DNA of 64,000 nucleotides from Marsupella aquatica (lineage: Eukaryota > Plantae > Marchantiophyta), in the NCBI GenBank assembly GCA_973895155.1, contig OZ316896.1:310001-374000 (forward strand), in the 5' to 3' direction. Both the position numbers and the translations under genes were made by a program. The first letter of the stretch is position 1. Each line of letters begins with the position of its first letter. Of this stretch, positions 4,476 through 37,659 are shown in pieces. The notes beneath the pieces were generated by a model. The model worked only from the letters and a program-made list of their open reading frames with translations, ran no database searches and was not told the origin of the DNA.

Positions 4476-4872
4476 AACTGAGCTTGCAGTTGCTGTATAT
4501 ACATGTCAGTGGATGCTAACAAATGCCAACGCGGAACAAAGAAAACGAATGCAAATTAGACGAATGCCATGGTCACCGTAGTGTTACCGTGAATAAGCCC
4601 CTTGATCTGAACCTTATAGTTTAGACCAGCGCACCACGCTGTGGTTAGAGGTTCGAGCAGAAGTGACAGGATCGGATCGACGTGGTTGAGATCAGGGCGC
4701 GGTGCTCTAGAGTTGCCAAGTAGACCGACAGGCGCTGGTCTTTGGGGAGTGTCAAACCGAGTGTGTCAACCCGAGTGCACTATTGATGTGAGAGTGTATT
4801 TTAATTTTTTACTTTGCCCCTAAACATGTTCTAATTGATAATATTGTCAGCCATTGCACTATTGATTTGTGA

Positions 4873-9600: not shown

Positions 9601-9850
9601 TTCAAGGCCGACCTCCGCGAGAAGGATGACCAGCTCGACCAAACTTATGCCAAGATGAATAAAATGGAGTCTGAGGTCATTACAGAGCTCGACAAGGAGC
9701 TGAGAGCAACCCAAGAGGAGAGGGCTACCTTAAAGAAGGAATTAGGGGAAGCCCAGAAGGAGCAGGAGGAGGCGCGCAAGGACCTGGATAAATTGCAGGA
9801 GGAGTTGGAGGAAAGCACGCGGAAGATGGAGATCTTACAACGGCAAGCCG
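6610..9850 (+). mobile_element. Giant coding gypsy LTR, family A copy 1 (3'-truncated, pseudogenised ORF)
   Basis: Starts TGTGATGTCTAGCCAGGAATC like the other copies. ORF pieces 7169-7501, 7532-8242, 8243-8740 and 9040-9855 are colinear with 24248-27871. Cut at 9850 by an element starting TGTGACACC. Confidence 0.88.
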
Positions 9851-10829: not shown

Positions 10830-11116
10830 CTCGGGGGGTTAACTTAGTGTATATTTTGGGGTACCACGTGCGATCCTAGCCTAATATAAACACACCTATT
10901 TTATAATGGGAATATTCTAAAACCATTCTCTATTTTCAATATTAATGACCTATTTTACTTTATAAAAGGTATATATTAGAGAATATTCTATAAATATTGG
11001 TCTATAATACCTTCTTTTGCTTTCTACGCTTTTTAAAAATTTAGCTAATTTCTATGAAAAATACCTATTTTGGATCGCACGTGGTTCCTAAGATTTTTGA
11101 TAGTCAACCCCTCGAG
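10830..11116. mobile_element. 287-bp MITE with 15-bp TIRs and 8-bp TSD (hAT-like)
   Basis: TIRs CTCGGGGGGTTAACT / AGTCAACCCCTCGAG; subterminal inverted ccacgtgcgatcc / ggatcgcacgtgg; TSD ACCTACAC at 10822-10829 and 11117-11124; AT-rich core. Confidence 0.92.
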
Positions 11117-12905: not shown

Positions 12906-15798
12906 TGTGATGCCTTGCCAGGATCATGAAGTAATAACTTAGCCTAAAAAATTGGATAAAATAAGGATAGATAGAGAGTATAAGGTAACAATAAAGACCG
13001 ATGCCGATTCTACGTGTAAATGATGAAGGGAAGGATCCAACGGTTGAGATTCAGCGGGATTGGAGTTATGACCTAATCCATGCTTGATCACAAGGACCCC
13101 TAGGTGGCGGCTTTGGAGTAAGGTGACCAATTCTCTGCCATTTCGCATTCTTGTGTACACGGTTTTGACATTGAGGAGCGACTGTCAGTCGAGTGCATGT
13201 GGTGGATTGGAAGATTGTGCAAGTTCTTGGCATTCGGTGGAATGAACACAGTGAATCAGGCAAGGAAGTTTTGGGGCTGTTTGCTTGAAGAAGCAAGGCA
13301 GCTGATACCTACGTATGAAGACGTTGAGCCGGAGCGCACAGCCAGAGAACGAGCAAAGCTTGCACAATTGTGGGGAATTCACAAAGCGGCATTCGTAGAT
13401 ACGGAGGAGGTGTTGGAAAAGTTCTCGTGGACACCCACCAGTGCGGAGCTTGACGAATTGTTGATTCGAGAGAATAAGGTCGTGGGGATTAGGGAGGCAA
13501 TCAAGAACGTAGGGCAGCCACTTTGGGAATTGAAGGGTCACACTACGAAGTGGACGAAGGAAGCTATTCTCGGGGAGTATTCAGGCGCTGAAGAGATGAA
13601 GCGCAAGGGAGGTTTGGCATCCGCCACTCCAGCAAAGTGAACTAGGTCGGAGAGACCAATCAAGATGGAATCCGGGCCAGTTAGAGATCGGGCTGTAGAG
13701 GATAAAACCATGACAGGGTGGGCGAACAGGTTACCTGCCGATTTACAATTACAGTTCGCAAGAGATGAGGATGAGGTCTTCAGTGCCGTTCAGGATAATA
13801 AATATGCAGGATATATGAATGACACTGGGTTGGAGGGCTTTGTCAGGTTGTCTGGTAGACATACCGGATGAGGATCTGTTGGACTTCGTGGGATGCTGGG
13901 AGGCTTCTTCCAACACGACGCTGCTATATGAAAAGGTGTTCGAACTAACACCTGCGCTTATCAAAGTCGTCTTCGCTTTACCAACAGGAAGAAAGACTAA
14001 GGTGGAGCAGAGGAAGACGTCGTCGGATGACCAGTTCAGGTCATTTCTAGGGCCTTCCACTAAGAATGGGTTTTTCAGGAATCAATGTACCAACCCGCAT
14101 ATAGGGCAGCTGATTGATTTCCTGAGAGTCACGTTGCATTGTACCTTGCCGAGAGCAAAAATCGGCAAAGCCCAGGTATTTTTGGTGGAGAATATCGATG
14201 CAAGCCAAGACTACAATGGCTTAACGATGAAGTTGAAGACGTATCTCAGGAATTGGAGGAGGCCAGGGATAAGATGCTCAAGTTGCAAAAGCGTGCCGAT
14301 AATGAAACGGAGAAATTGAAGAAGTATGCCGAAGCGGGATATGGGTCACCAACTGAAAGGCTTCCCATCAGTAGTATGGTAGGCGGAAATACAGTGAAGC
14401 CAAAGCCAAAGCCGAGCTCACTATTGTCAAGCGTGACTGGGGGCAAAGCCATGCAGTTGGTGGCAGATTTAGCAAAAACATTCATGGGGCCAAGCGATAA
14501 TAAAGTTAAGCCCCTTAAAGCCACTCCGGAGGAAGTCGAGAGCATGGCCGCTCACATTTGTGGTACTGTGGCCCTAAAGGCAGCTGTGGTGTACTGCGGA
14601 TCAACTTGGAGCTGCGGTAACAGGTTCAGACGATGGTACTGCTTCTATGGACGCCCATAACGTGAAGCCGTGGGTTATCAAGACCGAGCGAATCGGGGAG
14701 CAGGCTTGGATTGAGGAAGTTAAGGCAAAAGCTCTCCAAGCCGTTTCCCAGGAGGATGCCGATGCAGCAGCCGATGCCGGGGCCGACAAACCAGAACCCA
14801 AAGTCAAGGAAGCCGAAGGGGTCAAGCGAGAGCCGATGGCAGGAGAAGGTGCAGGGTCGGAAGATTCAAACTTACCCCCGGTCATTTGACAATTAAGGAG
14901 GGCCAGTCATCGATTGGAAGGAGGACGTGGCGGCAAGAGAAGGGCTTGGGCCAGAAGGGCGCGGCCGTTGTAGGATGGGACAGGGCAAGTAGCGCCCTGT
15001 TGGCTTAGGTGGTATTAGATGCTCGGTTCACATAGGGTTCCGGGCTAGTCAAGTTTTTTAGGTGATAGTTCTTTTTGTAGGATTATCGCGGTGGAAGGCC
15101 GTGAGTTGTGGTTAGGATTTTTGCCTTTTCCCCTGGATGCGCTGCAAGGATAAAAACCTGGGCAGCGTGGCTCGGGGGCTTTTTCTTAGTCAAGGCTTTA
15201 GTGTAAATCTGTATTGTTGTGCACAGGAAGCTCTCGGCTAAATCTAGACCGCAGGGTATCAGTAAACCACCAGTTCCCTTGGATTTTTTGAGCAATTGTT
15301 TGAATTGAGTTGGCCTCATTGCATAGTTTGCAGATTCTTGCCATCCAAAGAAGTTGAGTGTTATGATATCTAAATGCTTGATCGATTTAAGTCAGATAGG
15401 GTGAACTGTTGAGCAAAATACAATCGCATTGTCTTGATTGGAGACTGTCCAATCAAACTCTGAGAGAAAAGTGAGGATTGAGAATGTTTAGTCGGTGAAG
15501 TGTGGGTTTAGTCAGTTTGAAAAAGACCTTCAGCCGGCTTAAGAAATTAAGCCGTAGGGGTACATTCCGGGGGCGGAATACAAATATACCTAAAGAAGTT
15601 AAAGAGGAATTAGGTGTCTCAGTTGTGCACAATTCATAAGCCCAGTGAAAGAATCGGTCCGGTAAGTGTGGATCGAAGGGGAGGATCGCGTTTTCAAACC
15701 GAGTAGCTGCCATACGGCAAGAGGACGGACATAAACGAGTGGCTTATGATCGTCTGAGGGTAGTTCTTAGGGTTAGAGGTCTTGGAAAATGCACCACA
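12906..15798 (+). mobile_element. Solo LTR of sister family B (2.9 kb, internally deleted) carrying a degenerate homologous ORF (~13197-14889)
   Basis: Termini TGTGATGC...GCACCACA identical to family A; TSD TCTCA on both sides (12901-12905, 15799-15803). Peptides NQARKFWGCL, LQFARDED, GPSTKNGFFRNQCTNPHIG and QKRADNE align with family A. Confidence 0.9.
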
Positions 15799-16404
15799 TC
15801 TCAGCGGGACACAGCCGAGATTGACGCCCTGAAGGCAGAGGTGGCACGGCTTCAAGGAGAAGCCACTAAACAGGCCCAGTTGGTGGACAAGCTGACGAGC
15901 GACACCCAACAACTGGAGGAGGCATGCCATGAGGCCGCGGAAGAGGCAGACGCGGCGAAGCGGGAAAACGAATCTCTGCTAGACCAGGTCCAGCTACTCA
16001 AGCAGGACGCCGACAGGCTTAGAAGGCAACGGGATAGCCGCTCCCACTCAGGCGGCTCTGGCAAGCGCGCCAGACATTAGCGGCGGAGTAGGATTAGAGT
16101 AGAGTTCGGAATAGCTCAATTAGGCTATAGGGACAAGCACCTGCCCTAGTTAGAGCAACACTGCCATGTTGTACAACCTGTGTAGATTAGGATCTCCTAA
16201 TAAGATAAGTTGTTTTCCGGCCTGACAGCCAGCTTAGTTAGGACCTTAGTTAGCAAATCTTTGGACGTGAGGGCACTCCATTCCTTGGCCCTTAGTATTT
16301 AGTGCACCCCTCGGTAGAGGCAGGGGGTTTTTTAGTCTCAATGTGGGACATCCGCGGTATGTGCGGGGAGTCCCGATCTCTGGGAGTGAAAGAGTACCGA
16401 GGGG

Positions 16405-16719
16405 ATCATCCAACCATTCGTCCGGATCCTCATCTCCTCTCCCATGAAATGCCTTGTAATGTATGCACGACCGCTGGCTCAATCTGGTCCCTGGCCTCTC
16501 GTCTGGCCGTGCCTCTGGTTCCCCCATGTAGGTTGGAGACTCACTTCTCCTTACCGACTCTTCTTCTGGTATGTCTTCTTCGACGCCACTTCCAGTTTCG
16601 GAGCTACCAGCTCTTTCTGCCCTTCTCAGTCGTTGTGTATCATGCCACCCGGCGAGCTGCTGCAGTCGAGCTCTCTCCCGTTGAATCACTCTTTCTTCCC
16701 TCGGCGTAAGGTCAGTCAT
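16405..16719 (-). pseudogene. gag: Truncated Ty3/gypsy gag N-terminus of the family A element
   Basis: ATG 70 bp downstream of the LTR end. YKAFHGRGDEDPDEWLDD fits the gypsy gag/capsid F.G...EDP..WL motif. Homology stops abruptly at ~16405. Confidence 0.72.
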
Positions 16720-16765
16720 TACCTACGCTTCCGTTCTAACTTCATATCTCACAGCTTAAGAAATG

Positions 16766-16784
16766 CCCCCTCCATCTAGCGCCA
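16766..16784 (-). promoter_or_regulatory. Putative primer binding site TGGCGCTAGATGGAGGGGG
   Basis: TGG-initiated motif 4 nt after the LTR 3' end (..GCACCACA tttt TGGCGCTAG..), the canonical PBS position; priming tRNA not identified. Confidence 0.75.
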
Positions 16785-16788: not shown

Positions 16789-19700
16789 TGTGGTGCATCC
16801 CATGGCTCCCTAAACCCAAGAAACCCCCAGCTCAAGCCGATTCCCGCAGGTTTCACGCTTGGCGAGGCCGTTTCCGCGGCTTAGCGGCATGGGACGCTGC
16901 TAACCTTCTACTACTACTATTAACATTTTACACACATATACTGGACAGATCCTTCATCGGGTCATGAGATACGTAGCCGGCCTAATCTAGGCCTTCCCCT
17001 GTCTTCCCCTTCATCTTGTTAGGTATGTTTGGATTCCGCCGCCGGAATGATCCCCAATAGGCTTGGTTAAGCCGCTAAGACCTCTCTCAGCTCGACACAT
17101 CCAACTCTCACTCCCCTGCTTACTTTCCTTCTGGTTGATGTGGGCACTCTTCACACAAGTTAATGCGACACACAAATAGCAAAATGACTCATTCTGACTG
17201 AGTCATACCATGCACTTGCCATACAAACAGTACATCTCATACACAAGCTCTGCGAACTAAGCCGTGAGGCCAACTCTATTCAGCTCTTAGGCATGAGGAA
17301 ACATGAATATACACAAGGGTCACTGTATGACTAACCGAGAGCTTCTCGTACTACTTGATCCCAGCCCGGCTGGTGCAAACTAAAAACTTGCTAAAGAAGA
17401 GGCCCTGAGCTCCCCGCTGCCCAGGTACTTATCCTGGTACGTAGTGGATCCGCCATTCTTTGCATCGTAAGCCTAATCTACCTAACAGTAATCTACTTGC
17501 CCGAATCTACCTATGTACAGCAAGGTAGGAGCACAAGTGTTACTCCTACCAGTGGAACCGCAATCCCACTAAGCTAAGTGTCAGGGCCGCTCCTGGTCCT
17601 GATCCTAATCCTAAACTTGGAGATCAGCGCCCACCCTGCCCACTCACGCCTCCTCCCTCCACGTCCGCCCTCCCTAAAAGGAACGGCGCCCTTGCACCGT
17701 CACGACACTGGTGGAGGATCCTTAATGGACGCCCCCAACGCTTCCTCCTCAGCCACTGCCGTAGGTTCATTCTCTGACAGATTACCTGCCCTTGACTGAG
17801 TCAACTCTCCATCGGCCTGACTGGGTCCACCATCGGCGTCGGCATCGGCTCGGGAATTGGTTACGGCCTCAGCCTCGGCTACGGTCTCCCCGGCCTGCTC
17901 AAGAGGCGGATCTGGAATACCGGCCTCATTACTGAGTAGTTCGACTTGGGCCGCACCACCCCCACCTGTGATGATAGCGGGATCTATTGTCGTATTCATG
18001 CCGGAGGATGGTGCTGGTTCTACCTCCTTGGTCACCACGGCTTGTGGAGTCGGATTACTCCTTGACCCTGAAGGTTTCCGCTTTTTCTTCTTTTCTAGTT
18101 CGGCAGCTGGTCCCTTCCCCTTCCCACCTACTTCCGGCACTGGTGCAGGTGGCGCGGCTTTTTCTTCGGCCAGTACCACTCCTGGTAACTTGGTTGCCCC
18201 AATTGGAGTTGGGCCTGATGAAGACAAGCACTTAAATACTGCGGCTTGTTTCTTCAGCCGCTCCATTTGGTTGTCGGCCCGCCGCTGGAGGTTCTCCATC
18301 TTCCTCGTGATTTCCTCCAACTCCTCCTGGGTCTCATCCAGGTCCTTGCGTGCCTCCTCTAGTTCCTTCTGGGCTTCCTCCCGTTCTTGTTTCAAGGTAG
18401 TCCTCTCCTCCCGGGTTGCTCTTAGCTCCTTGTCGAGCTTTGCAATGATGACAGACTCCATCTGGTTCATCTTGGCGTAAGTCTGATCGAGCATCTCGTC
18501 CTTCTCCCTTAGGTCGGCCTTGAAGCTGGCCGTCAGGGACGCAAGCTCCTACTGCAGCGCCATAATCCCTTGATAGGATTTCCCTAACTCGGCCTCCTTC
18601 TGCTCAAGGGCTCCGCGGATTTTCTCGAGCTCCCCCTTCAACGCCCATTCCTTTCTTTGGGTCTCCGCCATGGCCCGACTGTTGGCTGTTATGTGGGCCT
18701 CCTCTGTATTCTTCAGCTCTTGCTTCCACTTCTCCCTCTCTTTGATCGCGTCGGCCAACTCTCCCTGCGTATGAGTCAGTTTATCCTTGATATTCTGATT
18801 ATCAGCCTGCGCGGTGTCCAACTGCCCCTGCATGATGTTCAGCTCATGCCGTTTAATCCGCAGTTCATCTTGGGCTTTCTTGGCCGCCCTTAGATCTCAA
18901 TCTCGGCTTCCATCCTCCTAAGCCGCCGAATGACCTCGTCCTTCTTGCTTCTCTCTAAAGCCACCGCTTCTTCTAATTGGTGCTTCTCCAACTGCTCCCT
19001 ATGGAAAAAGGGTCCTACCTCCAACTCCTCTCCAAAGATGCCGAGCGCAAGTTCCCCACACATCTCACCATACTCCATGGCTCTATTCTTACCGTAGGTG
19101 GAGTAAGTAGAAGTGATCGGCATCGCCCATCGTGGCCTTTGCTCCCAAGCCGTCTTGCGGATCTCTTAAATCGTGGCTAGAGGTTTGCTTCCTTTTTTGG
19201 CTAGCCGCCTGATGTCCTCCGGCCAATCTCCTCCTGGTAAATCCTTTTCCCTAGTCAGGGCTGCCTCCTCTTCCTGCCTGATTCGCTCCTGAAATTCCTG
19301 CACCGTCTGTTTTATGCCGTCAAAGCTCGGGGGAGCAACATCTGGTGGGGGAGACTCAGGGCTACTCTGCTGGTTGGGGTCCCCTCGCACTACCCTTGGA
19401 AGTGTGGGGACAAACCGGCCACAGGTCCTTACTCCTGGAACGTGATGGTCCGACCCATAGCCGGAATTATCATGGCTGCAGTCCTCCACTGCCTCCTCTA
19501 CTTCTTGGACGTCCGGCTTCTCCCTCTCCTCTTCGTCGGTAGGAGCTTCAGGCAATTCTACCTCAGATTCGGAGCTTGAGATTCCCACATACATTCGAAC
19601 ACCTGGCTTGGATTCCGGCCTGATTCTCTCCTTGTCTCCAGCAAAGGGGTTTTCTCTTGTGAGCCGGTGTAGGCCTACCTCTGTAGTAGTGTCCTGCATT

Positions 19701-21490
19701 GTTGTCGTTGCCGTTGTTGTTGCCGATGCCGATCTCTTTTCTTTCTCCAGTAGTTTCAGCAGACTCTGCATGCCTGGTTGCTGCATCGGCAAGTCTTCCT
19801 TCCTGGGTCTAAACACCTTCTCGATCGTAGGGCTAACAGGTGTTGAGGCTTCTCAGCCAACGGCCTCGGCGTTGGAGCTTCCTCGGGTGCCCTTACCTGC
19901 AGGGGAAGTACTGGGGCAAAAGTCTGACCTCTGGCATACCGGCACAACAGCGGCATGTGATAGCCAAGCCGCAACACGCTCCCCATACCGATTACCTGCT
20001 ACTCCTCCTTTAAGATCTTCTTCAATTGGTTGAGGAGGTACCCGTTGTAGTCCCGGCTTGGGTCTGGCCTTTCTGCCAGATAGACCTGTGCCTTGCCGAT
20101 CTCTGCCCTTGGCAAGTTACAATGCATGGTCACCCGCAAGAAGTTGATCATCTCTCCTATGTGCGGGTTGGTACAGGTGTTCCGGAAGAAGCCATTCTTC
20201 GTTGATGGCCCGGGGAACGACCGGAACTCCTTGTCAGGCAAGGTCTTTCTGGTATCAACTTTGGTCTTATTGCCTATCGGCAAGCCAAACACTTCGGCAA
20301 TTACCTTGGGAGTAAGATAGAAATCCTTCCCATATATCCTCGTGCAATTGGTCTCGGGTTCCCATGACCCCACGAATTCTAATAGGTCTGACTCCGGTAC
20401 CTCTGGCTTCAGCCATGGTAATCTTACAAAGGCCTCTAAGCCGGATCCGGCCATGAAGCCTTGGTACTTCTTGGTCTGCATGGCCGTAAAGCATGCATCC
20501 TCCTCCCGTGCAAAATGTAGTTGCACCTCCACCGGTAGGGTTGCCGCCCAGCCCTTCCAGGTGTCATCCCTGGTTGGAATGGCCTTGATGGGATCGACCT
20601 CCTCTTCTTTGGCTTCTCCCTGCCTCCTGCTCTGCTGCTCGGCTGGCTTCTTTGGTGCCGCCGACCTCGTTCTTTTTGCCGGGGTGGCTTCATCGTTGAC
20701 GGCTCCCTTCCTCTTCATCTCTGCTGCCGTGGAGGTTTCTCCTAGCACCGTTGCCTGGGTCCACCTTTCCGTGCTACCCTTTAATTCCCAGTGTATGTCG
20801 TTGCAGTTCTTGATGGCCTCTCGGATGCCGACGACGCTGTCGTTGCAGTTCTTGATGGCCTCTCGGATGCCGACGACGCTGTCTTTGCAAAATAGAAGAT
20901 CGTCGAGTTGATTGGAAGTAGGCGTCCACAGGAACTCGTCCTTGATGAGTTCGCCTCCTAAGAAAGCCGTCTTCTGCAGCTCCCACAATCGAGCGAGCTC
21001 CTGCCGTTCTCGAGCTGCCCTTTCTGATTCCTCGTCCTCGTAAGTCTTGATGTACTCAGTTGCCCATTCGAACAGGCATCCCTAGAAATGTGCCGCTTGA
21101 TTGACGTTGCTCATACCCTCCTTAGGTCGATCGTCGGTATCTACTCTCTCCCCGAGTGCTTGCCTAAGCAGCTGACAGTAGTTGGCCTCCCGTAGTCGTC
21201 TGCCTAGTTTGTGCTCGCAAATGAGTCACCATCTCCTGCAAGCGCTCCTTACCCCTCTCCTCTGCCGGTCCTTCTTCCCGTTGATCCTTCCTAGCCGCCG
21301 ACGCTTAACGCACCCTAACCCTAATTGAGTTTTCACCCTCAGCGTCCTTACCTTCGGCCTCGGCCCGGGTTCCATGGTTGCCCCTAATGGTTTATATTTT
21401 CCTTGTTTTGTCCCTATACTAAGGTGTTCCTAGGGTGCCTTCCTGCTTTACCCACTTAACTGGCCGAGTGATTCCTGTCTAGGCATCACA
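16789..21490 (-). mobile_element. Giant coding gypsy LTR, family A copy 2 (complete 4,702-bp 5' LTR)
   Basis: Minus-strand termini TGTGATGCC...GCACCACA; near-identical to 24133-28792; followed by PBS and gag; inserted inside copy 3. Confidence 0.92.
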
Positions 21491-23250
21491 ATCAGTGCCG
21501 TTGCCATTGCCGTTGCCGTTGCCGTTCTTTTTTCCTTCTCCAGCAATTTCAGCAGATTTTGCATGCCTGGTTGCTGCATCGGCAAGTCTTCTTTTCTTGG
21601 CCAAAACACCTGCTCGATCGTCGGACTGTCGGGCTGGTTGAGCTTCTCTGGTGCTGGCCCCTGCTCCGGAACCTCCTCCGGTGCCCTTGCCGATAGGGGA
21701 AGTACTGGGGCAAAGATTTGACTTCTGGCATACCGGCACAATAGCGGCATGTGATAGCCAAGCCGGGACACGCTTCCCACGCCGATCACCTGTTGTTCCT
21801 CCTTCAAGATCTTCTTCAGTTGGTTGAGGAGGTACCCGTTGTAATCCTGGCTTGGGTCTGGCCTTTCTGCCAGGTAGACCTGAGCCTTGCCGATCTCTGC
21901 CCTCGGCAAGTTACAATGCATGGTCACCCGCAAGAAATCGATCATCTCTCCGATGTGTGGGTTGGTGCAGGTGTTCCGGAAGAAGCCATTCTTCATTGAT
22001 GGTCCTGGGAACGACCGGAACTCCTTGTCAGGTAAGGTCTTCCTGGTATCAACCTTGGTCTTATTACCCATCGGCAAGCCAAACACCTCGGCAATCACCC
22101 GGGGAGTGAGATAGAAATCCTTCCCATACACCCTCGTGGAATTGGTCTCGGGTTCCCATGATCCCATGAATTCTAATAAGTCTGAGTCCGGCACCTCCGG
22201 CTTCAGCCATGGTAATCTTACGAAGGCTTCCAAGCCGGATCCGGCCATGAAGCCCTGGTACTTCTTGGTCTGCATGGTCGTAAAGCATGCATCCTCCTCC
22301 CGTGCAAAGTGTAATTGCACTTCCTCCGGTAGGGTCGCCGCCCAGCCTTTCCAGGTGTCATCGTTTATTGGAATGGCATTGATGGGATCGACCTCTTCCT
22401 CTTCGGTTTCTCCCTGCTTCTTGCTTTGCTGCTCTGCTGCTTTGTTGGCTTCCTTGGTGCCGCCGACCTCGTTCTTTTTGCCGTGGTGGCCTCTTCGTTG
22501 TTGTTTCCTTTCCTCTTCATCTCGGTTGCCGTGGATGTTTCTCCTAGCAAGGTTGCCTTCGTCCACCCCTCCGTGTTACCCTTCAACTCCCAGTGTAGGT
22601 CATTGCAGCGATTGATGGCTTCCCGGATGCCGACGATTCTGTTTTCGCAAAATAGAAGGTCGTCGAGCTGATTGGCAGTAGGAGTCCACAAGAACTCGGC
22701 CTTGATAAGTTCTCCTCCTAAGAAATCCGTCTTCTGCAGTTCCTAGAGCTGAGCGAGCTCCTGCCATTCTCGAGCTGCTCTCTCCAATTCTTCGTCCTCG
22801 TAAGTCCTGACGTACTCACCTGCCCATTTGAACAGGCATCCCCAAAAATGTGTCGCTTGATTGACGTTGGTCATACCCTCCTTGAGTCGATCGTTGGTAT
22901 CTGTTCCCACCCCGAGTGCTTGCCTAAGCAGCTGACAGCATTTGGCCTCCCGTAGTCGTCTGCCCAGTTCGTTCTTGCAAATGAGCCACTATTCCTCGCG
23001 AGCGGTCCTTACCCCTCTCCTCCTCTTCTTCCCTCTCGTTGGTCACCCCTAGCCGCCGACGCTTAGCGCGCCCTAACCCTAATCGTGTTCTCTCCCCCGG
23101 CGTCCTTAATTCCGGCCTCGGCCCGGGTTCCATAGTCACCCTTAATTGTTTATATTTTCCTTTGTTTTTGTTCCTATACTAAGGTGTTTCCAGGGTACAC
23201 TCTTGCTTTACCATGTAAAGCGGCCTAGTGATTCCTGGCTAGGCATCACA
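21491..23250 (-). mobile_element. Giant coding gypsy LTR, family A copy 3 (5' 1.76 kb, interrupted by copy 2)
   Basis: Starts TGTGATGCCTAGCCAGG on the minus strand at 23250. The ORF runs to LEKEKRTATATAMATA and is cut at 21491. Confidence 0.88.
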
Positions 23251-23329: not shown

Positions 23330-24132
23330 TGATAGGGTAGAAATTTAGCAAGTTAAATTAATAAAATTTTGAAGAGTAAGTATCGATCGAGTTACAATTA
23401 AGTAGAGGTCTACCATTAGAGGGAAATTACTATTTAAACCTTAAAAGAACAACTAGAGCTTCATTTTGTCTAGTCGAGGCTCAGTTTTTGGTTAGTTGGT
23501 AGTTCTATAGCGATGGATCGGTCTGGAGTCATCCGCTTAGTTGGAGTAACGATTGCGGCAATTTAGGGCATGCATGGCAATGACTTAGTTTATGAGGGAT
23601 GCAATATCCTATAGACGATGGAAAGCTATGTGCCTTAGGGCCCAGTACACACAGAGCTAGACTGAGCAAAGGAAATTGGAATGTAGGGTTGCCAATGAGG
23701 AACCGAGTGAATCATTGTTGTTGACCAGTAGGTTCCGGCCAATACATGTACAGTTTCTTTGTGCAAATCAATGATGATGTTTATCAAGTGTGGGAAGAAG
23801 TCGGCTGTCAACTATTTGGAGTCACTGGGCATGAGTTTCATATGCAAGTGGATGCACAGGAACAAAATTGTTATCGTGTCATGAATGAGCGATGGATAGT
23901 GCAAACTGTGGAAAATAGAAGAATCTGACTAAACAAATATTAGGGTTCCACAGGATGAGAACTCACTCAAACTATCAACAAACAGGAGAAGGGACCAGTG
24001 AAACAAGAATGGCACCAGTGGAGACAACAATGCATGAACTTAGCATTGAAGCAACAGACACAAGAGATGGAATCAAAAACGACCGCTCAGGAGAACGATT
24101 AACTGAAGAACAACCAGTCAGGAGGTGCACTA

Positions 24133-27100
24133 TGTGATGCCTAGACAGGAATCACTCGGCCGGTTAAGTGGGTAAAGCAGGAAGGCACCCTAGGAACACC
24201 TTAGTATAGGGACAAAACAAGGAAAATATAAACAATTAGGGGCAACCATGGAACCCGGGCAGAGGCCGGAGGTAAGGCTGAGGGTGAAAACCCGATTAGG
24301 GTTAGGGCGCGTTAAGCGTCGGCGGCTAGGAAGGATCAACGGGAAGAAGGACCGGCAGAGGAGAGGGGTAAGGAGCGCTTGCAGGAGATGGTGGCTCATT
24401 TGCGAGCACGAACTAGGCAGACGACTACGGGAGGCCAACTACTGTCAGCTGCTTAGGCAAGCACTCGGGGAGAGAGTAGATACCGACGATCGACCTAAGG
24501 AGGGTATGAGCAACGTCAATCAAGCGGCACATTTCTGGGGATGCCTGTTCGAACGGGCAACTGAGTACATCAAGACTTACGAGGACGAGGAGTCAGAAAG
24601 GGCAGCTCGAGAACGGCAGGAGCTCGCTCGATTGTGGGAGCTGCAGAAGACGGCTTTCTTAGGAGGCAAACTCATCAAGGACGAGTTCCTGTGGACGCCT
24701 ACTTCCAATCAACTCGACGATCTTCTGTTTTGCAAAGACAGCGTCGTCGGCATCCGAGAGGCCATCAAGAACTGCAACGACATACATTGGGAATTAAAGG
24801 GTAGCACGGAAAGGTGGACCCAAGCAACGGTGCTAGGAGAAACCTCCACGGCAGCAGAGATGAAGAGGAAGGGGGCCGTCAACGATGAAGCCACCCCGGC
24901 AAAAAGAACGAGGTCGGCGGCACCAAAGAGGCCAGCCGAGCAGCAGAGCAGGAGGCAGGGAGAAGCCGAAGAGGAGGAGGTCGATCCCATCAAGGCCATT
25001 CCAACCAGGGATGACACCTGGAAGGGCTGGGCGGCAACCCTACCGGTGGAGGTGCAACTACATTTTGCACGGGAGGAGGATGCATGCTTTACGGCCATGC
25101 AGACCAAGAAGTACCAAGGCTTCATGGCCGGATCCGGCTTGGAGGCCTTTGTAAGATTACCATGGCTGAAGCCGGAGGTACCGGAGTCAGACCTATTAGA
25201 ATTCGTGGGGTCATGGGAACCCGAGACCAATTGCACGAGGATATATGGGAAGGATTTCTATCTTACTCCCAAGGTAATTGCCGAAGTGTTTGGCTTGCCG
25301 ATAGGCAATAAGACCAAAGTTGATACCAGGAAGACCCTCCCTGACAAGGAGTTCCGGTCGTTCCCCGGGCCATCAACGAAGAATGGCTTCTTCCGGAACA
25401 CCTGCACCAACCCGCACATAGGAGAGATGATCGACTTCTTGCGGGTGACCATGCATTGTAACTTGCCGAGGGCAGAGATCGGCAAGGCACAGGTCTATCT
25501 GGCAGAAAGGCCAGACCCAAGCCGGGACTACAACGGGTACCTCCTCAACCAATTGAAGAAGATCTTAAAGGAGGAGTAGCAGGTAATCGGCATGGGGAGC
25601 GTGTCGCGGCTTGGCTATCACATGCCGCTGTTGTGCCGGTATGCCAGAGGTCAGACTTTTGCCCCGGTACTTCCCCTGCAGGTAAGGGCACCCGAGGAAG
25701 CTCCAACGCCGAGGCCGTTGGCTGAGAAGCCTCAACCACCTGTTAGTCCTACGATCGAGCAGGTGTTTAGGCCCAGGAAGGAAGACTTGCCGATGCAGCA
25801 ACCAGGCATGCAGAGTCTGCTGAAACTACTGGAGAAAGAAAATAAATCGGCATCGGCAATAACAACGGCAACGGCAACAATGCAGGACACTACTACAGAG
25901 GTAGGCCTACACCGGCTCACAAGAGAAAACCCCTTTGCTGGAGACAAGGAGAGAATCAGGCCGGAATCCAAGCCAGGTGTTCGAATGTACGTGGGAACCT
26001 CAAGCTCCGAATCTGAGGCAGAATTGCCTGAAGCTCCTACCGACGAAGAGGAGAGGGAGAAGCCGGACGTCCAAGAGGTAGAGGAGGCAGTGGAGGACTG
26101 CAGCCATGATAATTCCGGCTATGGGTCGGACCATCACGTTCTAGGAGTAAGGACCTGTGGCCGGTTTGTCCCCACACTTCCAAGGGTAGTGCGAGGGGAC
26201 CCCAACCAGCAGAGTAGCCCTGAGTCTCCCCCACCAGATGTTGCTCCCCCGAGCTTCGACGGCATAAAACAGACGGTGCAGGAATTTCAGGAGCGAATCA
26301 AGCAGGAGGAAGAGGCCGCCCTGGCTAAGGAAAAGGATTTACCAAGAGGAGATTGGCCGGAGGACATCAGGCGGCTAGCCGAAAAAGGAAGCAAACCTCT
26401 AGCCACGATTGAAGAGATCCGCAGGACGGCTTGGGAGCAGAGGCCACGATGGGCGATGCCAATCACTTCTACTTACTCCACCTACGCTAAGAATAGAGCC
26501 ATGGAGTATGGTGAGATGTGTGGGGAACTTGCGCTCGGCATCTTTGGAGAGGAGTTGGAGGTAGGACCCTTTTTCCATAGGGAGCAGTTGGAGAAGCACC
26601 AATTAGAAGAAGCGGTGGCTTTAGAGAGAAGCAAGAAGGACGAGGTCATTCGGCGGCTTAGGAGGATGGAAGCCGAGATTGAAGATCTAAGGGCGGCCAA
26701 GAAAGCCCAAGATGAACTGCGGATTAAACGACATGAGCTGAACATCATGCAGGGGCAGTTGGACACCGCGCAGGCTGATAATCAGAATATCAAGGATAAA
26801 CTAACTCAGACGCAGGGAGAGTTGGCTGACACGATCAAAGAGAGGGAGAAGTGGAAGCAAGAGCTGAAGAATACAGAGGAGGCCCACATAACAGCCAACA
26901 GCCGGGCCATGGCGGAGACCCAAAGAAAGGAATGGGCGTTGAAAGGGGAGCTCGAGAAAATCCGCGGAGCCCTTGAGCAGAAGGAGGTCGAGTTAGGGAA
27001 ATCCTATCAAGGGATTATGGCGCTGCAGCAGGAGCTTGCGTCCCTGACGGCCAGCTTCAAGGCCGACCTAAGGGAGAAGGACGAGATGCTCGAACAGACT

Positions 27101-28792
27101 TACGCCAAGATGAACCAGATGGAGTCTGTCATCATTGCAGAGCTCGACAAGGAGCTAAGAGCAACCCAGGAGGAGAGGGCTACCTTGAAGAAGGAATTGG
27201 AGGAAGCCCACAGGGAGCAGGAGGAGGCCAAAAACGAGCTGGAGGGGGCACGTAAGGACCTGGATGAAACCCAAGAGGAGTTGGAGGAAATCACGAGGAA
27301 GATGGAGAACCTACAGCGGCGGGCCGACAACCAAATAGAGCGGCTGAAGAAACAAGCCGCAGTATTTAAATGCTTAGCTGCAGCAAGTCCATCTCCCGTT
27401 GGGACAAACCAGTTACCAGGGGTGGTAATTGCCGAAGGACAAGCCGCGCCAACTGCACCAGTGCCGGAAGTAAGTGGGAAGGGGAAGGGACCAGCTGCCG
27501 AGCCACCAACGAAGAAGAAGCGGAAACCTTCAGGGTCAAGGAGTAATACGACTTCACAGGCCGTGGTGATCAAGGAGGTAGACCCAGCACCGACCCCAGA
27601 CAGGGTCACGGCTAAGGATCCAACTACCCTAGGGGAAGGGGAGGCCGAAGCCGAGGGAGTGGCTGAAGCCGAAGCCGTGGGAGTGGCTGAGGCCGAAGCC
27701 GTGGGTATTGCCGAGGCCGGTGTCGAGGCTGAAGCCGAAGGTGGACCCAGTCAGGCCGATGGAGAGTTGACTCAGTCAAGGGCAGGTAATCTGTCAGAGA
27801 ATGAACCTACGGTAGTGGCTGAGGAGGAAGCGTTGGGGGCATCCATTAAGGATCCACCACCGGTGTCGTGACGGTGCAAGGGCGCCGTTCCTTTTAGGGA
27901 GGGCGAACGTGGAGGGAGGAGGCGTGAGTGGGCAGGGCGGGCGCGGATCTCCACGTTTAGGATTAGGATCAGAACCAGGAGCGGCCCTGACACTTAGCTT
28001 AGTGGGATTGCGGTCCCACTGGTAGGAGCAACACTTGTGCTCCTGCCTTGCTGTACATAGGTAGATTCGGGCAAGTAGATTACTGTTAAGTAGATTAGGC
28101 TTACGATGCAAAGAATGGCGGATCCACTACCAGGATAAGTACCTGGGCAGCGGGGAGCTCAGGGCCTCTTCTTTAGCAAGTTTTTAGTTTGCACCAGCCG
28201 GGCTGGGATCAAGTAGTACGAGAAGCTCTCGGTTAGTCATACAGTGACCCTTGTGTATATTCATGTTTCCTCATGCCTAAGAGCTGAATAGAGTTGGCCT
28301 CACGGCTTAGTTCGCAGAACTTGTGTATGAGATGTACTGTTTGTATGGCAAGTGCATGGTATGACTCAGTCAGAATGAGTCATTTTGCTATTTGTGTGTC
28401 GCATTAACTTGTGTGAAGAGTGCCCACATCAACAGAAGGAAGGAAAGTAAGCAGGGGAGTGAGAGTTGGATGTGTCGAGCTGAGAGAGGTCTTAGCGGCT
28501 TAACCAAGCCTATTGGGGATCATTCCGGCGGCGGAATCCAAACATACCTAACAAGACGGAGGGGAAGACAGGGGAAGACAGGGGAAGGCCTATATTAGGC
28601 CGGTTACGTATCTCATGACCCGATGAAGGATCTGTCCAGTATATGTGTGTAAAATGTTAATAGTAGTAGTAGAAGGTTAGCAGCGTCCCATGCCGCTAAG
28701 CCGCGGAAACGGCCTCGCCAAGCACGAAACCTGTGGGAATCGGCTTGAGCCGGGGGGTTTCTTGGGTTTAGGGAGCCATGGGACGCACCACA
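24133..28792 (+). mobile_element. Giant solo LTR, family A copy 4 (4,660 bp)
   Basis: TGTGATGC...GCACCACA termini; perfect 5-bp TSD CACTA (24128-24132, 28793-28797); no gag or pol inside. Confidence 0.95.
24248..27871 (+). CDS. LTR-encoded protein (~1,120-1,207 codons, one internal TAG at 25577-25579): PMD/plant-transposon-like domain, Pro/Glu linker, long coiled coil, KKKRK NLS-like motif, acidic tail
   Basis: ORFs 24248-25579 and 25592-27871 share one frame. The stop is a sense codon (EEQ) in copies 1 and 3. A conserved Met at 24506 is an alternative start. EFVGSWEPET..G..LTPKVIAEVFGLPIG resembles the PMD W.PET...G..T......GLP..G signature. Confidence 0.75.
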
Positions 28793-31499
28793 CACTATCT
28801 AATAGCAAGTAACAATTAAGAGTTACTTGTTTTATTAGACAAGTAACTTTAGTGAAATAAAACGGTTACAAAAACCGAATAAGCAGTTTGACAGTTGCAA
28901 CTGCTAATAGTTAGGAGAAGTTAAGAAAAACCTATCTGTATAGGGATATAGGGTAGGAGAGTAGGAGTGAGAAGGGTCTTTTGTTGTGAAAACTTTCAGG
29001 ATCAGGAAGCTATAGAGGTAGCCCAGGAAGAGGTAGTGTTGAATTGTTAGACCTGGAGGTGGAGAGATAGGAGTCCATGGAAGAACAACCATGTAAAGAA
29101 ATTGATGTGTTCATGGAATGAAAGATGCAATCAAGACATACTGGCAGAACTACAGGGAGTATTCAATTACATAGCTTGTATCTGTTGTATGTTGTATGTC
29201 AGTAGAATTAAAGTTAAGAAGTTAATTGTAAAGAAAAGATGGCTGGAAATATTGACATTTGACAATGGGAAATTCATTTGGATTTGGTTGGAACCTGTTA
29301 AAGGGAGAATAAGAATTGTATGGCATCTAAAAATTGATTTTGCAAACTCTTAAGAAAATCCCTGCAAGATTAGAATAAAGAGTAATTGATAAGAAATGTT
29401 GTAAAAGAGAGACCCAAAGTAGTGGAATATGGAATTAACTACCTTTGATTGGTCATTTAAATTTGAACGCATTCCATTTGGGCTACAGAATGCACCAAAT
29501 GAATGCAAACACATAATTGAAAGTTGGATAAAAATTATTGAAGAAGAAGACTTAGTAATTGATGAACCTACCACAATGGGTCTTGAGATCCTCTTTGAAG
29601 AAACATTAATTGAAGGGTAAATGGAATTTGACCTTCAATTCAGATGACAGTCGGGGTCTGCGGCTAAGGAAAGTTGGATCAATGTCTCGAGTAATTGCAC
29701 AAGTCGTCACTATCTAATTGTCGGAAAGGTTGGATAGCAAATGAAGAGTGCACAAGAAAGTACTATAGGAAGTCGTAATGGGATCAAGAACTGAATTTTG
29801 GATTTTGTTCTTATTTAGTGAGGACAGTGAACTGCTAGTGATAAGTAACTTGAGTGAAGCAAAATACAGAGCGTTGAGCAAAAGAGAGATGAAGATACAA
29901 GGAGGGGAAGTGATTATGCTGATTCATAACTCTTCCACTTATACAAAATTAACTGTTAAAGAATTACAGAAGGGAATTTGGAGACAAGTGAGACAAGCTA
30001 AATACAAGAAGGAGGCGGACGGAAACTAGTTTGCTTTGAGCTAGTAGGATGATGAGCAATTCAAGAAAAGGACTGTGTGTGTCCGTGAGACCACCCAACA
30101 AGAGTAAGGAATTGGAGAAGATTCTAGTTGTATGCTTATGGCAGAGGTTTGAATATCCAACGCCCGTGGCATTGCAAATTGGACGGGTGCTGAGGAGGCT
30201 ATAGAGGAAGTTGAGAGAGAACACAACAAACAAGGATGAGAGTCTGTTCTGGAGCAGAGACGAGGTGTTTGATTATAATATGCTAAAGGAGTTGATGTGG
30301 CTATGCGAGACACAGCTAATGTTACTTGAAGATTGCACCCCAATGTTGAGTGGATAAGGAAATGAGGTGATTAGTCAGAAAAGATAGCCTGGTTTAGCTG
30401 TTATTTTGTGAAGTCAGAACAGTGAGTCAGAATGTCAAATTTTGTGTTTGTAAGTCTGGAAGGGGCTCTGTCAAGCTAACGATGATATTTGTTAGCTAAG
30501 AATTATTTATATACGCAAAGTTGCAATGAGGTTTTCCACGATGGGACAAACTGAGCTCATGAAAAGCTTTCAACTGGAACTCTGGAGTACTCATTGTGAA
30601 CTATATATAATTATAAAGGATTCGAGGAGGAATTATTGACCACTCATGGTGGGAGTATTGGACAAATGGAATAGTGTGGCAACAACGCTATCCAAGAAAA
30701 GTATAGTTAGGTGCGCAACAACGAAAGTGAAGGGCGCGCGACTGGGCAGTAAAAGCGCCAATGATACCTTTGAGAAGGATGAAAATTCCAATTTTTAAAG
30801 GTACATTAGAGGAAGACGCTGACACACATTTGACCAGATTTGAAGAAATGCTTCAAGCTAATCACAAGCAAAATGATGTAACAAGATTGGAACTGTTTTC
30901 AAGTTCTTTGGATAAGGGTGCTTTTGTATGGTACACCCAATACCCACCTGGTCATTTTCAAGAATGGGAACATTTATCAAAAGCTTTCTTAGACCAGTAC
31001 CAGGTGGCTAAAGAAGAAACTGATCTGTATAGCATTTTATAAAATATGACGCAGCAAAAGACAGAATCAGTTCAAAGTTACATAGGATGATTAAAAGTTG
31101 TTATGCGCAGATTGACTCATCAACCATCCGATGCTCAACGGATTAGTTGGATGAGGAGAGCAGTTAAAGAAAATCTAGTAATTAATTGTGGTAAAAAAAA
31201 TCCCACTCAAGATGCTGATGAGTATGAGAGAAGGCTAAACCCTAAACTTATAAGTTGGAAAAGACGGTATTGGCTGATAAGGGAGCAATGGTACACTTAA
31301 ATATAAAAGGAACTTACAAAAAATAAGAATGTATTGTTAGATGGTGGTTCAGCAGTTAATTTAATGAGTGAAGACATATTTTGGAAAACTGCAAAAGTAA
31401 AGATAGTACCTGCACCTTTTAATCTATTAATGGCAGCTCAAAGTAGTTGCCACCCATTGGGTTATATACCAGAATGAGCTCAATACCTGTGCGTTGCAC

Positions 31500-32665: not shown

Positions 32666-35600
32666 TCCGCTCAGCCACACACATTTGAGTTTCATGCGAC
32701 GAAACTCCGAATGTGTCACCGACACTGAACGCTGGAAAACCCCCACAAAAAACCAAAAAAATAGGTTAGTGAGAGGGTTTTCTAACGTGGTTAGAACTCG
32801 CTGATCGGTATCCATGGTGCGAAGGAATCAAAGTTTGCGTCGTTCAGGTTTTATTCGTGTTTGACGGTTTTTTGGGGGAGAAACCAGAGTTTGCGTTTTT
32901 CAACGGTGTGAGCTGTGCGGTGCGGGAGGGATTGCACATTATAGCTCAAGTTGAAGGTTGAAGAGAGCTGATCGTTTTGATAGCTGAATTGTTGCCAAGT
33001 TGTTACCGAGTGCGACGTGACGAGTGAAGGAGGCGTTCAGGTTTTTTCACAAGCTATGGAGCTTGTTCCCATCTGAACCGGGTTTCTCTTCGTGACGTCC
33101 GACTCGGTGGAAGAAACGCGAAGTGCTACGGCTCAACGGTTTGATCAAGGCAAGGCACACGGCGGAAATTGGCACTTGACGCGGAGTAAAGGCGACACGG
33201 CGGAAATTGTTTACTCAACTGAAGCTGCAGACTGTGCGTGTGCAATTTGGCAACATTTCCCGTCGGCGGCGTTCACTTTACTCGTGAGAAACGACGGAAA
33301 TTAGGTGAGTTATTCATTCACTTTTTCCCGGGGGTGTTTTTTGGCCTTTTAAGGGGGTTTTAGGGCCCTTATTTTTGTGTATATACACACGAGGTGTATA
33401 CACATCTTGTACCAATACCCCTCGCATACCAAGTCCCCCCGCCCCCCGCACCCCATTTTTTCACGCGCGCGGCAACCCTGCGCAGCGCTGGCCGATGTGA
33501 AAGCAGCCGCCCGATTGCTGCTGCCTTTTTCCCCCTCCCCTTCGGCCGTGCCTTGCTCTCACGCCCCCATGCTCGCCCTTGGGCCGGCCCTGCGCCCCCG
33601 GTCGTCCCTTCTTGCCCTCCCGCCGGTGCCCCTCCTCGGCGCACGACGCAACATTAACCCCCCTGCCCCCGTCTCCTGTTGGCCCCTTTAGGCCCCTTTT
33701 TAAAGCCTCTTTTCATGTTTTTTCCCCGGTTCTTTTAAGTGGCTATCCCGGGACCAGTGACCCAACGTTTTAACTGCTTGGACAGGGGGAATGGCCCCCT
33801 GTGGGCCCTGTCAGACTGTGTGGGAATATTCCCAAAACACAAAGAGCTATTTTTTGGCCGTCCAACAAAAATTCTGCGCGTCGAACAGTCACTTTTTTGG
33901 TTTTTTTTTGGTGAGGTTGTAGCCATGGGATTTAGCAATGCGACGCACCAATCACATCATAATTTCAACTTGGTATTTTGGTTATTCCCTGCGGTGGTCA
34001 AAACGGGGGAGTTTCCCAAGGTTTTACCCACCCCGACCAAAATTTGAATAGCTTTTTCGTCAAATTTTGATTTTGATTTCGGCTTTTGGTATTGGACTCC
34101 TAGATTTGTGGGCTATGCGGCAGTGTTGAGTTTTGAGTTTTATGAGAAGTTTTGAAAAAAGACGTTTTTTTGTGATTGTTTCATATGAGTGACTCGGAGA
34201 ATACTAGAAGAATTGGCGTCGGAGGAGCTTCAGGATCGCGACAATCAGACGGTGAGTCTGAGGAGGAGCTACTACCATTTGAGGAGGAACTAGTTTCACC
34301 GGTACGATCATCGGTGCGGCATGCAGTGGAGGAAGTTGTTCTACTACCAGAGCTGTCGGCAGTGGGGAAGAAGAGGGAGATGGCTAGATTTGGAGGAGTG
34401 AATTTTGAGGTGGAGAAGTACAATGGCCGTACTGACTACTTGCTGTGGGAGAAGCAAGTGAAGGGTGTTCTTCGGGCCATGGGCTTAGCTCACTGCTCTC
34501 TTCGCGAGAGCAATATGATAGAGAGGAAGAGATCTCAAAGAAGCAGTGGAGACAGGAGCAGGTGATTGTTGTTAATGTAGTGATGCTTTATCTCAAGCCG
34601 CACATCATCAAGAAGTTGGATGATTATGCGGATTGTGTGTCACTGTTCAAGGCTCTAAGAGAGAAATACTACCGAGAAGATGCGTCAGATCGGCTATACA
34701 AGGAGTCTCTAGTGAGATACGGCGGTGAATATAGTTCCGGGGAATTTGAAACGTATTGTAAGGAGCAGGGGATTACCCGCCATCTCACAACAAGTTATAC
34801 TCCTCAGCAAAATGGTTTTTTTAAGAGACTCAACCAAACACTATTAGACCGCTCGAGGAGTATGTTGAGTCAATCATGCTTACCACATGAGTTTTGGGCT
34901 GAAGCTGTCAACACTGCAGCTTATTTGGTAAATTTTTCTCAATCCAATTCTATTGGATTCAAGATGCCATTTGAAATGAGGTACGGGCGTCCAGTAGATT
35001 ACTCACATATGAGGATTTTTGGATGTGATGCTTATGTACTTACACCTTCCCAGCTTCGATCCAAGCTGGAGTCCAAGTCAAAGAAGTGCATTTTCCTTGG
35101 CTATCAAAAAGGTGTGAAGGGTTATAGGTTATGAGATCCATTAACCTGTAAGCTAATTGTCAGTAGAGATGTGTCCTTTAATGAATCCAGATCATCAAAG
35201 GAGGGGGAGAGTTCTCAGGACTCCCATACTGACAAGGGGAAATCTCCCATCCCGGATCGGGTTGAGGAGGAAATTAGTCATGATGTTGTTCATGATAGGA
35301 GAGATGGAGAAACTCCGGGCTTGGAGTCGGTTCCTATGTTGGAACAAGAGGAGTAGATTGTTGCTGGGGTACCTCAAATTCAGCCAGCAGCAGCAGCAGA
35401 TCAGCCTGAGTCATCTACTAGAAGAACTTCCAATCATTCTACTAGAGCTCCTACTAGGTATGGTCAATGGACAGACTCATCTAAGCTAGATGATATTGAC
35501 ATTGCACCTGATGAAGATGATATGGCTTTGATCTTGGAAGAATGAGAGCCTTCTTCGTACAGTGAGGCTTGTGCTTCAAAGTAGAAGCATGAGTGGAATG

Positions 35601-37659
35601 CAGCAATGTAGAGGGAGTTGCAATCCTTGAGTGACAACAAGACTTGGGAGCTCGTGGAGCTTCCAAGAGGTCATCAAGTGGTGGACAGCAAGTGGATTTA
35701 TAAGTTGAAGGACATTCCTTCAGAGGGTGGAGACAAGATCTTCAAGGCAAGGCTTGTTGCCAAGGGATTCACTCAGGAAAAAGGAGTGGATTACAATGAG
35801 GTCTTTTCACCGGTGGCTAAGTATTCCACAATTTGGATCTTGTGTCAGCTTGTTGTGTTTTTTGGTTTGGTGATGGATCAAATGGATGTTGTTACTACTT
35901 TTCTCTATGACAACTTGGAAGAGATGATCTTCATGAGACAACCACTAGGCTTTATGAAGAAGGGCCAAGAGAACTTAGTTTGCAGATTGCTCAAGTCCTT
36001 GTATGGATTGAAGCAATCTCCCAGACAGTGGAATAAGCGATTTGATGATTTCATGCTTGCTCAAGGTTTTACAAGGATGGTGTATGATCCTTGTGTGTAT
36101 ACAAAATCAGTCAAGAATGATGTGTTTGATTTCATCATTCTGGTTATCTATGTGGATGATAAGCTGATTGTGGCTAAAGATCAATCTGAGGTTGACAGTC
36201 TCAAGGCAAAATTGAGTTCTCAATTTAGGATGAAGTATCTTGGTAAGGCCAAGAGGATCTTAGGGGTGGAGATTTTTAGGAACTCTGATACTGGACAGTT
36301 GTACGTGCTTGAGTCAAGGCCAGTATCCGAGGAAAGTACTTGCACAATTCAACGTGGAAAACTTTAAGCCAGTGAGTATTTCTTTAGCTTCACATTCAAG
36401 TTATCATCGGCTTTCTCTCCTACGGATGCTGTGGAGAAAGGTCTGATGGCTAAGATTCCTTATGAGAAGGCAGTAGGCAGTCTGATGTATTTAATGACTT
36501 GTACTAGGCCTGACTTGGCCCTAGCGATGGGCAAGGTTAGCAGATTCATGTCAAATCAGGGAAGATACATTGGGAAGCTGTGAAATGGATTCTCAGGTAT
36601 CTGAAGGGAACACAGGACTATGGATTACTATTTGATAACAGATCAGATAGAACGTTGGTTGGATATGTAGATTCTGACTATGGAGGCTGTCTGGATACAA
36701 GGAGGTCTACAACTGGGTTTGTATTTACTCTTGGAGGAGGATGTACCAGTTGGAAATCTACCTTGCAGAAGTGTATATCTCAGTCTACTACAAAAGTAGA
36801 GTATGTTGTAGCAGCAAAAGCAACAAAGGAAGCAATTTGGTTGGACAAGTTGATCGCGGAGATGGGTTTAGAGCATGGCAAAATGACTCTAAACTATGAT
36901 AGTCAGAGTGCTCTTCACTTGGCTGCTAACCAGGTGATGGATAGCAGGGTGAAGCAAATTGATATTAGGTACCATTTTATCAAGCAAGCAGTGTCTGATA
37001 AAACTTTTGAGCTAGTCAAGATTGATGGAAAGCTCAATCCTGCTGATGCTTTTACCAAAGTGATTTCTTTGGAGAGTTTCTCAAGACATCGTGCTACTTT
37101 GCAGGTTTTGCAGTTGTAGTGCAAGTAGAGTTATTTAGCAATGTGTGACTATTTGTATATGGATTACTCATTCCAGTTTGGCTACGACTTAGTTCTAGTT
37201 AACCCTTGTGGTTTTTAGGTGGAGACCTGTTTAGGTGATTGTCTAGAATTTCCCGCTGAGTATGCCATATGGTTGCATTTAGTCCAGTCCCCAAGACAAG
37301 AGTCAAGGGGGAGTTTGTTAGATATTGCTCTAGTCTTGTGACTCATGAGCTAACCATAGTTAGGCTAACTCGGGTTAGGACTTAGCTAATGTTAGCGGTA
37401 GTGTTGTTGTGTATTAAGCCAGGGCTAATGCCAGACCCTGGTGGAACTTAGGCTCATTGTTAAGGAGCTAGTTGAGAGATAGGGAGAGCTTGTGTTGTGG
37501 ATGCTTGGTATGGCCGGTCGGCCTAGAGTGTAGTAAAGCTCTTGTGTGTTCCCGTGGACGTAGCCTCATGTGGAGGTGAACCACGTATCTCTTTGTGTCA
37601 ACTCTTGTACGTTGGATGGTTCATGGGCTTGCAGTTGCAAATGTTGTCTATGCTCAATA
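32666..37659 (+). mobile_element. Ty1/copia copy A: no 5' LTR, internal gag-to-integrase deletion, pseudogenised; PPT plus 3' LTR 37316-37659
   Basis: gag FEVEKYNGRTDYLLW; integrase PQQNG, WAEAVNTA; [24 protein letters not shown]; RNase H IDIRYHF, ADAFTK; AGGGGGAG PPT before TGTTAG. Confidence 0.92.

Follow-up and report, generated by a model that had tools for sequence, protein, structure and literature searches.

An accessory gene inside the LTRs of a liverwort retrotransposon family encodes a protein with a predicted VANC/PMD-type fold and a possible role against silencing

We analysed a stretch of 64,000 nucleotides from the liverwort Marsupella aquatica (contig OZ316896.1, positions 310,001 to 374,000; the window below). 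It is nuclear plant DNA, and its features are collected in Table 1. The protein under study is encoded in a solo LTR, copy A of a family that we call family A, which was inserted into an older, unrelated gag-bearing element. Copy A has TG...CA ends and a 5-bp target-site duplication, and a PBS-like site follows the 5' LTR of copy B, as in the LTR of an LTR retrotransposon. The PBS-like site TGGCGC... presumably matches tRNA-Asn. The ORF that starts behind it is probably the start of gag, judged by its position and by F.G..EDP..WL, which we take to be a gag motif. One contig from the public run X6 spans the junction of the LTR end, the PBS and the next ORF, and the LTR end exits into unlike flanks in 17 contigs from run X1 and 33 from run X2. 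Family A is abundant, with 15,437 contigs in X1 and 26,938 in X2. No pol of families A, B or C was found within the 64-kb window. Together, copies A and B make up an inverted repeat of 4.7 kb with 2.6 kb between its arms.

Two related families are also present. The gene in the family B LTR is decayed and has an internal deletion, and the family C gene is split by an AT-rich segment that is probably a MITE. Three blocks recur in the 3' non-coding LTR sequence of both family A and family B, and they may be promoter, poly(A) or protein-binding signals. Outside these families, the window holds a PPR gene, a soluble inorganic pyrophosphatase domain, a copia-type element that is present twice and decayed both times, and short arrays of plant telomere-like 7-mers; TTAGGGTTAGGG was found too in the 5' part of the family A LTRs. 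The PPR gene product is 81% identical to a protein of the leafy liverwort Calypogeia fissa and at most about 51% identical to those of the other plants listed; this one gene thus makes a leafy liverwort the likely host.

Table 1. Features of the window (positions count from its first letter)
Feature	Position	Strand	Remarks
PPR gene	1589-4505	-	related to Arabidopsis At5g50280; two long ORFs
Telomere-like 7-mer arrays	3153-3181; 6000-6029; 55877-55904
Copy D (family A)	6610-9850	+	incomplete LTR with ~81% identity; family C sits within it
Family C element	9851-16240	+	TG at start; right end not found; two insertions interrupt it
Family C parts	10325-10879; 11460-12011; to 16080		N-domain ORF; fold domain; coiled-coil pieces
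AT-rich segment (probable MITE)	10860-11090		~230 bp; short inverted ends; lies behind the N-terminal domain of the family C gene
Family B solo LTR	12906-15798	+	TG...CA; target duplication TCTCA; gene inside, start 13242
Shared 3' LTR blocks	within 27872-28792 (A) and 14880-15798 (B)		three blocks, 18-31 bp, 90-94% identical
Internal ORF start after PBS	16249-16722	-	truncated; no Pfam match
PBS-like site	16767-16784	-	4 bp past the LTR of copy B
Copy B (family A)	16789-21490	-	5' LTR, 93% identical to copy A; gene with stop and frameshifts
Copy C (family A)	21491-23250	-	5' part of LTR, interrupted by copy B; domain stop-free
Target-site duplication of copy A	24128-24132; 28793-28797		CACTA
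Copy A (family A)	24133-28792	+	solo LTR, 4,660 bp, TGTG...CACA
TATA-like ATATAAA	24226-24232	+	LTR +94; kept in 4/4 family A copies
Accessory gene	24506-27871	+	1,121 codons; ATG at 24506
N-terminal domain	24506-24820	+	~105 aa; common to families A, B, C and outside relatives
Bipartite NLS-like motif KRK-x10-KRTR	24863-24913	+	aa 120-136, upstream of the queried domain; pattern match
Queried globular domain	25019-25672	+	~215 aa (aa ~172-389)
In-frame stop of copy A	25577-25579	+	codon 358
Predicted coiled coil	26588-27364	+	~260 aa; heptad and composition profile
KKKRK monopartite NLS-like motif	27512-27526	+	acidic low-complexity tail after it
Weak Retrotrans_gag match	30731-31039		in the element that hosts copy A
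Copia-type element, two decayed copies	32761-37657; 53398-59981		83-93% identical; CpG-depleted
Soluble inorganic pyrophosphatase domain	48235-48873	-	intronless; CpG-rich stretch; Pfam E 5e-59; CpG ratio 1.27
Open-ended ORF at window edge	63040-64000	-	319 aa; coiled coil, KRK/KKKK motifs, acidic tail

The accessory gene lies entirely within the LTR, in sense orientation to the element, with 373 bp of LTR before it and about 920 bp after it. Therefore, both LTRs of an element and every solo LTR carry the gene. The ATATAAA near the left LTR end is a candidate promoter of the gene. Behind the N-terminal domain, in which the A/B group aligned with the C group in HHalign (probability 88.7%, E 2.6e-6, 97 columns), comes KRK-x10-KRTR, which resembles a bipartite NLS. 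A low-complexity linker joins the queried domain to the coiled-coil stretch (aa ~695-953), which is without proline and rich in heptads and in E, K, Q and R. No transmembrane segment was evident in the protein, the highest mean hydropathy over 19 residues being 0.98. The ORF cut at the window edge resembles the 3' end of an accessory gene and would be the fourth that an LTR carries here; Pfam gave it weak coiled-coil matches only.

The original prediction described a single protein with a domain, a coiled coil and a KKKRK motif. This is true of the family, and an outside relative of 906 aa (P0176) has the N-terminal domain, the core domain, a coiled coil and a basic end in one chain, but it is not true of copy A, where the last helix of the domain, the coiled coil and KKKRK lie beyond an in-frame stop at a CHG site. 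In the four public runs that were checked out of 15 listed, a sense codon stood at this place in 99.3% (X1), 99.7% (X2), 100% (X3) and 100% (X6) of the depth, and copies C and D have a sense codon as well. Thus the gene is continuous in nearly all family copies, and copy A is a decayed member. Since the stop is rare in the family, programmed read-through was rejected. Copy B has the same stop, and we considered whether copies A and B form one stop-bearing sub-lineage. This was rejected as well, because copy B has just 2 of the 21 minority letters of copy A (places among the 40 of 410 rows listed); a more likely origin is CHG deamination that hit each copy separately, or conversion from one inverted copy to the other. 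Among the same 40 of 410 rows, 15 of 17 private C>T/G>A changes of copy A fall in CG or CHG, against 38% expected (p 3e-5), and thus copy A was methylated.

The LTR gene is under purifying selection. For the queried domain, dN/dS of copy A against copies B, C and D was 0.10, 0.10 and 0.08, and pairwise values were 0.18-0.29 for the N-terminal part and 0.20-0.22 for the coiled coil. Most segments gave 0.08-0.3; between the closely related copies A and B, linker and tail reached 0.63-0.70.

All residues quoted for the domain in the original prediction were found in copy A (GLEAFVRLPW from 25136, WEPETN at 25214, GLPIG at 25292), and conservation in the other two families was borne out. Identity was 63% across 133 aa for family B (13858-14253) and 27% across 167 aa for family C (11460-11942; E 2e-11). 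The domain is present where it had been marked (25095-25320), but it is larger, about 25019-25672. A profile search with the domain found 54 relatives at E<=0.001, and two of the ten relatives of the LTR protein that were looked up are named Calypogeia fissa, which also speaks for a leafy-liverwort host. Calypogeia relatives include CAM6090539.1 and CAM6082161.1. An alignment (A2) was made from four window segments, 48 of the 54 profile hits and two cluster mates; two repeat proteins (apparent false hits) and three partial matches were dropped, and one hit was swapped for a longer cluster mate. The pattern conserved in A2 is GL..F..L.W...EF..N...T.V.G..L...F.L..G...R...F...NGY...C...ERL.F.R...W...F...SH..II. 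The W.PET...GLP..G core by which the domain had been compared with the plant mobile domain does not hold up, since the W.PET letters are not conserved across the 54 aligned rows, in which F91, L93 and G96 are.

Membership in a known family was not found by profile. No window protein had a match to PF10536, PF09331 or PF20167 that reached the cutoff, and PF10536 gave none at E<=10. Among 53 relatives scanned at E<=0.1 (the set without one protein of 4,384 aa), PF10536 and PF09331 matched 0 of 53 each, PF03078 matched none and PF20167 matched one, weakly and below its cutoff (E 0.059, 13.7 bits vs 45). Hence the two profiles proposed for checking, PF10536 and PF20167, had no match at cutoff in the window proteins or in any of the 53 relatives. 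Sequence-profile searches of the PDB returned coiled-coil noise only, and a domain-rich profile gave no match there. A word-indexed homolog search with the 357-aa ORF confirmed 0 of 1,915 candidates, a homolog search with A2 gave 0 of 2,282 among proteins of 1,587-4,530 aa only and is uninformative, and scans of metagenome contigs gave no confirmed locus of the outside relatives. In a language-model atlas, the neighbours included a DUF1985 cluster at 0.90 and 0.89 (82% of members; only 138-141 shared features) and a cluster with 14% PMD members at similarity 0.88-0.89; these neighbours come from one source and are leads only.

The stop-free domain of copy C, 93% identical to that of copy A, was modelled with AlphaFold2 on A2 (pLDDT 91.7, pTM 0.88); an earlier model from five sequences was discarded (pLDDT 39.9). 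In model numbering, R104, R142, R151 and H201 are basic residues that are conserved. The top PDB match in Foldseek was VANC21 with DNA (9lnj; probability 0.75, TM 0.47), with an E of 0.15 that is not significant alone. VIA-align of the model with VANC21 gave Z 8.6 and rmsd 4.2 with 206 of 218 residues aligned, and a Foldseek-independent search of 48,161 chains gave VANC21 at Z 8.4 (rmsd 4.2, 207/218 residues); a best Z of 7-8 is common according to the tool, and about 8.5 is near that range. In the same search the next chain was a designed protein at Z 2.2, and no others reached Z 2; over both comparisons the runner-up stood at Z 2.2-2.3. Identity to VANC21 was 9-11%. In a viral structure library nothing was found at E<=0.001, the best match having E 0.025 and rmsd 18. 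No PMD-named chain was among the structure matches, an absence that is uninformative. The queried domain is thus predicted to have the VANC21 (DUF1985/PMD-type) fold. The term PMD-like in the original prediction is appropriate at the level of the fold, with VANC21 as the only clear structural match, but not at the level of the family, where Pfam gave no match. Because VANC21 is matched and structural homology of VANC and PMD proteins is published, a complete lack of structural similarity, on which the prediction was to be given up, was not what we found.

The match might be due to chance or to an analogous fold, and the protein could then be an unrelated scaffold or an env-like movement factor. 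The missing HMM match to PMD or DUF1985, the empty PDB sequence-profile search and the Foldseek E value would fit this explanation. However, VANC21 aligns with 95% of the model and leads the next chain by more than 6 Z units, the atlas neighbours independently bring DUF1985 or PMD, and the lack of a transmembrane segment disfavours an env-like role. We therefore regard this as the least probable of the explanations considered.

Three known systems resemble the LTR protein. The first is VANC21 and its relatives (DUF1985, PF09331), with which it shares the predicted fold over the whole domain (residues 289-533 of VANC21, presumably its DUF1985 domain) and the arrangement of a transposon-encoded accessory protein with a coiled coil beside that domain. 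VANCs belong to VANDAL Mutator-like DNA transposons and are described as dicot-specific (PMC13547354), whereas the carrier here is a liverwort LTR retrotransposon with TG...CA ends, a 5-bp duplication and a PBS-like site. Unlike VANC, the LTR protein has an extra N-terminal domain and no PF09331 match, at the low identity given above. The second are the extra ORFs of Tat/Ogre Ty3/gypsy elements (PMD-A; PF10536), in which a PMD-type domain is followed by a coiled coil, a likeness that here exists at the fold level only. PMD and PMD-CC extra ORFs have been described in Tat elements, with none reported in moss or Selaginella elements (PMC4408406). PF10536 is present in 57% of Ogre elements (PMC6317226), and such ORFs are reported first in gymnosperms (PMC4408406, PMC6317226). 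Tat/Ogre ORFs have been described either ahead of gag or in the stretch from pol to the 3' LTR; in contrast, in families A and B the gene is wholly inside the LTR, survives in solo LTRs and has no PF10536 match. The third are the host proteins MAIN, MAIL1 and MAIL2 (PMD-C), which would have the same fold by the published VANC-PMD similarity, but these are angiosperm host genes, whereas the LTR protein is element-borne and multi-copy. In a survey of PMD proteins in angiosperms, the ancestry of element-borne versus host PMDs is left open (PMC5418596). Other plant elements have accessory ORFs of unknown function (PMC7264820, PMC11963269 and PMC11728184). In the literature searched, to which most subscription papers did not belong, no plant ORF inside an LTR and no LTR elements of leafy liverworts were reported. 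The LTR-internal position and the non-seed host are thus what notably set this gene apart from known PMD-CC accessory ORFs.

Retroviruses have genes in or overlapping the LTR, such as MMTV sag and HIV nef. The gene in family A is likewise an accessory gene coded in LTR sequence; the two retroviral proteins are unrelated, much shorter animal-virus proteins, and we claim no homology.

Sharing a fold does not by itself show a function. Nevertheless, published work on this fold suggests one. VANC21 recognises a 9-bp motif amplified in tandem repeats and brings about demethylation of its own TE family (PMC5735166). VANC and MAIN are structurally homologous, and VANC is predicted to oligomerise via its coiled coil (PMC13547354). 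PMD-C proteins counter Polycomb silencing at DNA motifs and are similar to the VANC DUF1985 domain (bioRxiv 2024.09.27.615353), and in bryophytes TEs are repressed by PRC2 (bioRxiv 2022.10.24.513474). By analogy, a nuclear modulator of silencing, as originally proposed, is the leading hypothesis. The LTR protein most likely works like VANC/PMD proteins, though profiles place it in none of PF10536, PF09331 and PF20167. In our preferred reading, to which we give a probability of roughly 0.55, it is a nuclear DNA-binding protein with a VANC/PMD fold, oligomerised by its coiled coil, that is likely to bind its own element and to sustain the element's expression in the face of silencing. Transcription would start from a promoter near the left LTR end, the basic motifs would direct nuclear import, and the coiled coil may mediate oligomerisation. 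The protein would bind a short motif within the element and locally relieve DNA-methylation or Polycomb silencing, and it might act in trans on copies with their own gene broken. Such protection would be partial or stage-limited, since copy A was later methylated and decayed.

Evidence for a target and for an effect on methylation was sought in the window. Unlike VANC targets, the non-coding LTR had no tandem array and no 7-8-mer in more than three copies, except for a 10-bp unit present 2.8 times; repeats of a target motif were not above chance level in the non-coding LTR parts, and the internal region lies outside the window. The CpG observed/expected ratio was 0.67-0.83 in the LTR-gene elements vs 0.41-0.43 in the two copia elements, a weak hint that is confounded by base composition, coding constraint and age. 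The PPR host gene, at 0.69, is like the LTR-gene elements, and CG/CHH transition ratios overlap in the comparison with the copia elements (0.9-3.2 vs 2.1-5.4). Nor was RNA seen among the public runs listed, which also counts against the preferred reading.

Two other roles might be considered. The protein might be a life-cycle accessory factor that binds element DNA, RNA or chromatin, its coiled coil helping to bring the integration complex into the nucleus, to export RNA or to choose target sites. The NLS-like motifs, the coiled coil and purifying selection fit this role equally, a life-cycle role has been proposed for other plant accessory ORFs (PMC7264820), and the methylation footprint of copy A indicates no lasting protection. 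However, the sole structural match is a proven anti-silencing factor whose host relatives also act on silencing, and we consider this role rather unlikely, though the strongest of the competing explanations. Alternatively, the protein might be a chromatin regulator of opposite or broader sign, that is, a self-repressor, a binder of host genes or a mimic of host PMD proteins. MAIL1 and MAIN entered the literature as silencing factors (PMC5418596), copy A is methylation-marked, and no clustered self-target motif was seen in the non-coding LTR. In contrast, later work has the direct action of MAIL1/MAIN as anti-Polycomb (bioRxiv 2024.09.27.615353), and the abundance of the family fits a benefit to the element; such a regulator seems improbable to us.

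The preferred reading, a protein that keeps its own element expressed, has a bolder form. In this form, the protein is a sequence-specific retrotransposon anti-silencing factor, its gene is in the LTR, and solo LTRs stay complete genes that can reactivate the family in trans. We hold this form only tentatively.

[quoted passage not shown] It touches two open issues, namely the function of PMD-type retrotransposon ORFs and whether host PMDs came from transposons or the reverse (PMC5418596). If the bolder form is true, a transposon-borne VANC/PMD fold would have been present close to the base of land plants, well ahead of angiosperm MAIN/MAIL and VANC, and its presence in a liverwort would favour a retrotransposon origin of the fold. 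A direct test is possible in a tractable liverwort model. Solo LTRs are normally the dead remains of element removal. Here, LTR-LTR recombination would remove the element yet leave the accessory gene intact, which changes what a solo LTR is, and any repeat that stays behind would probably bring with it a means of its own to resist host silencing.
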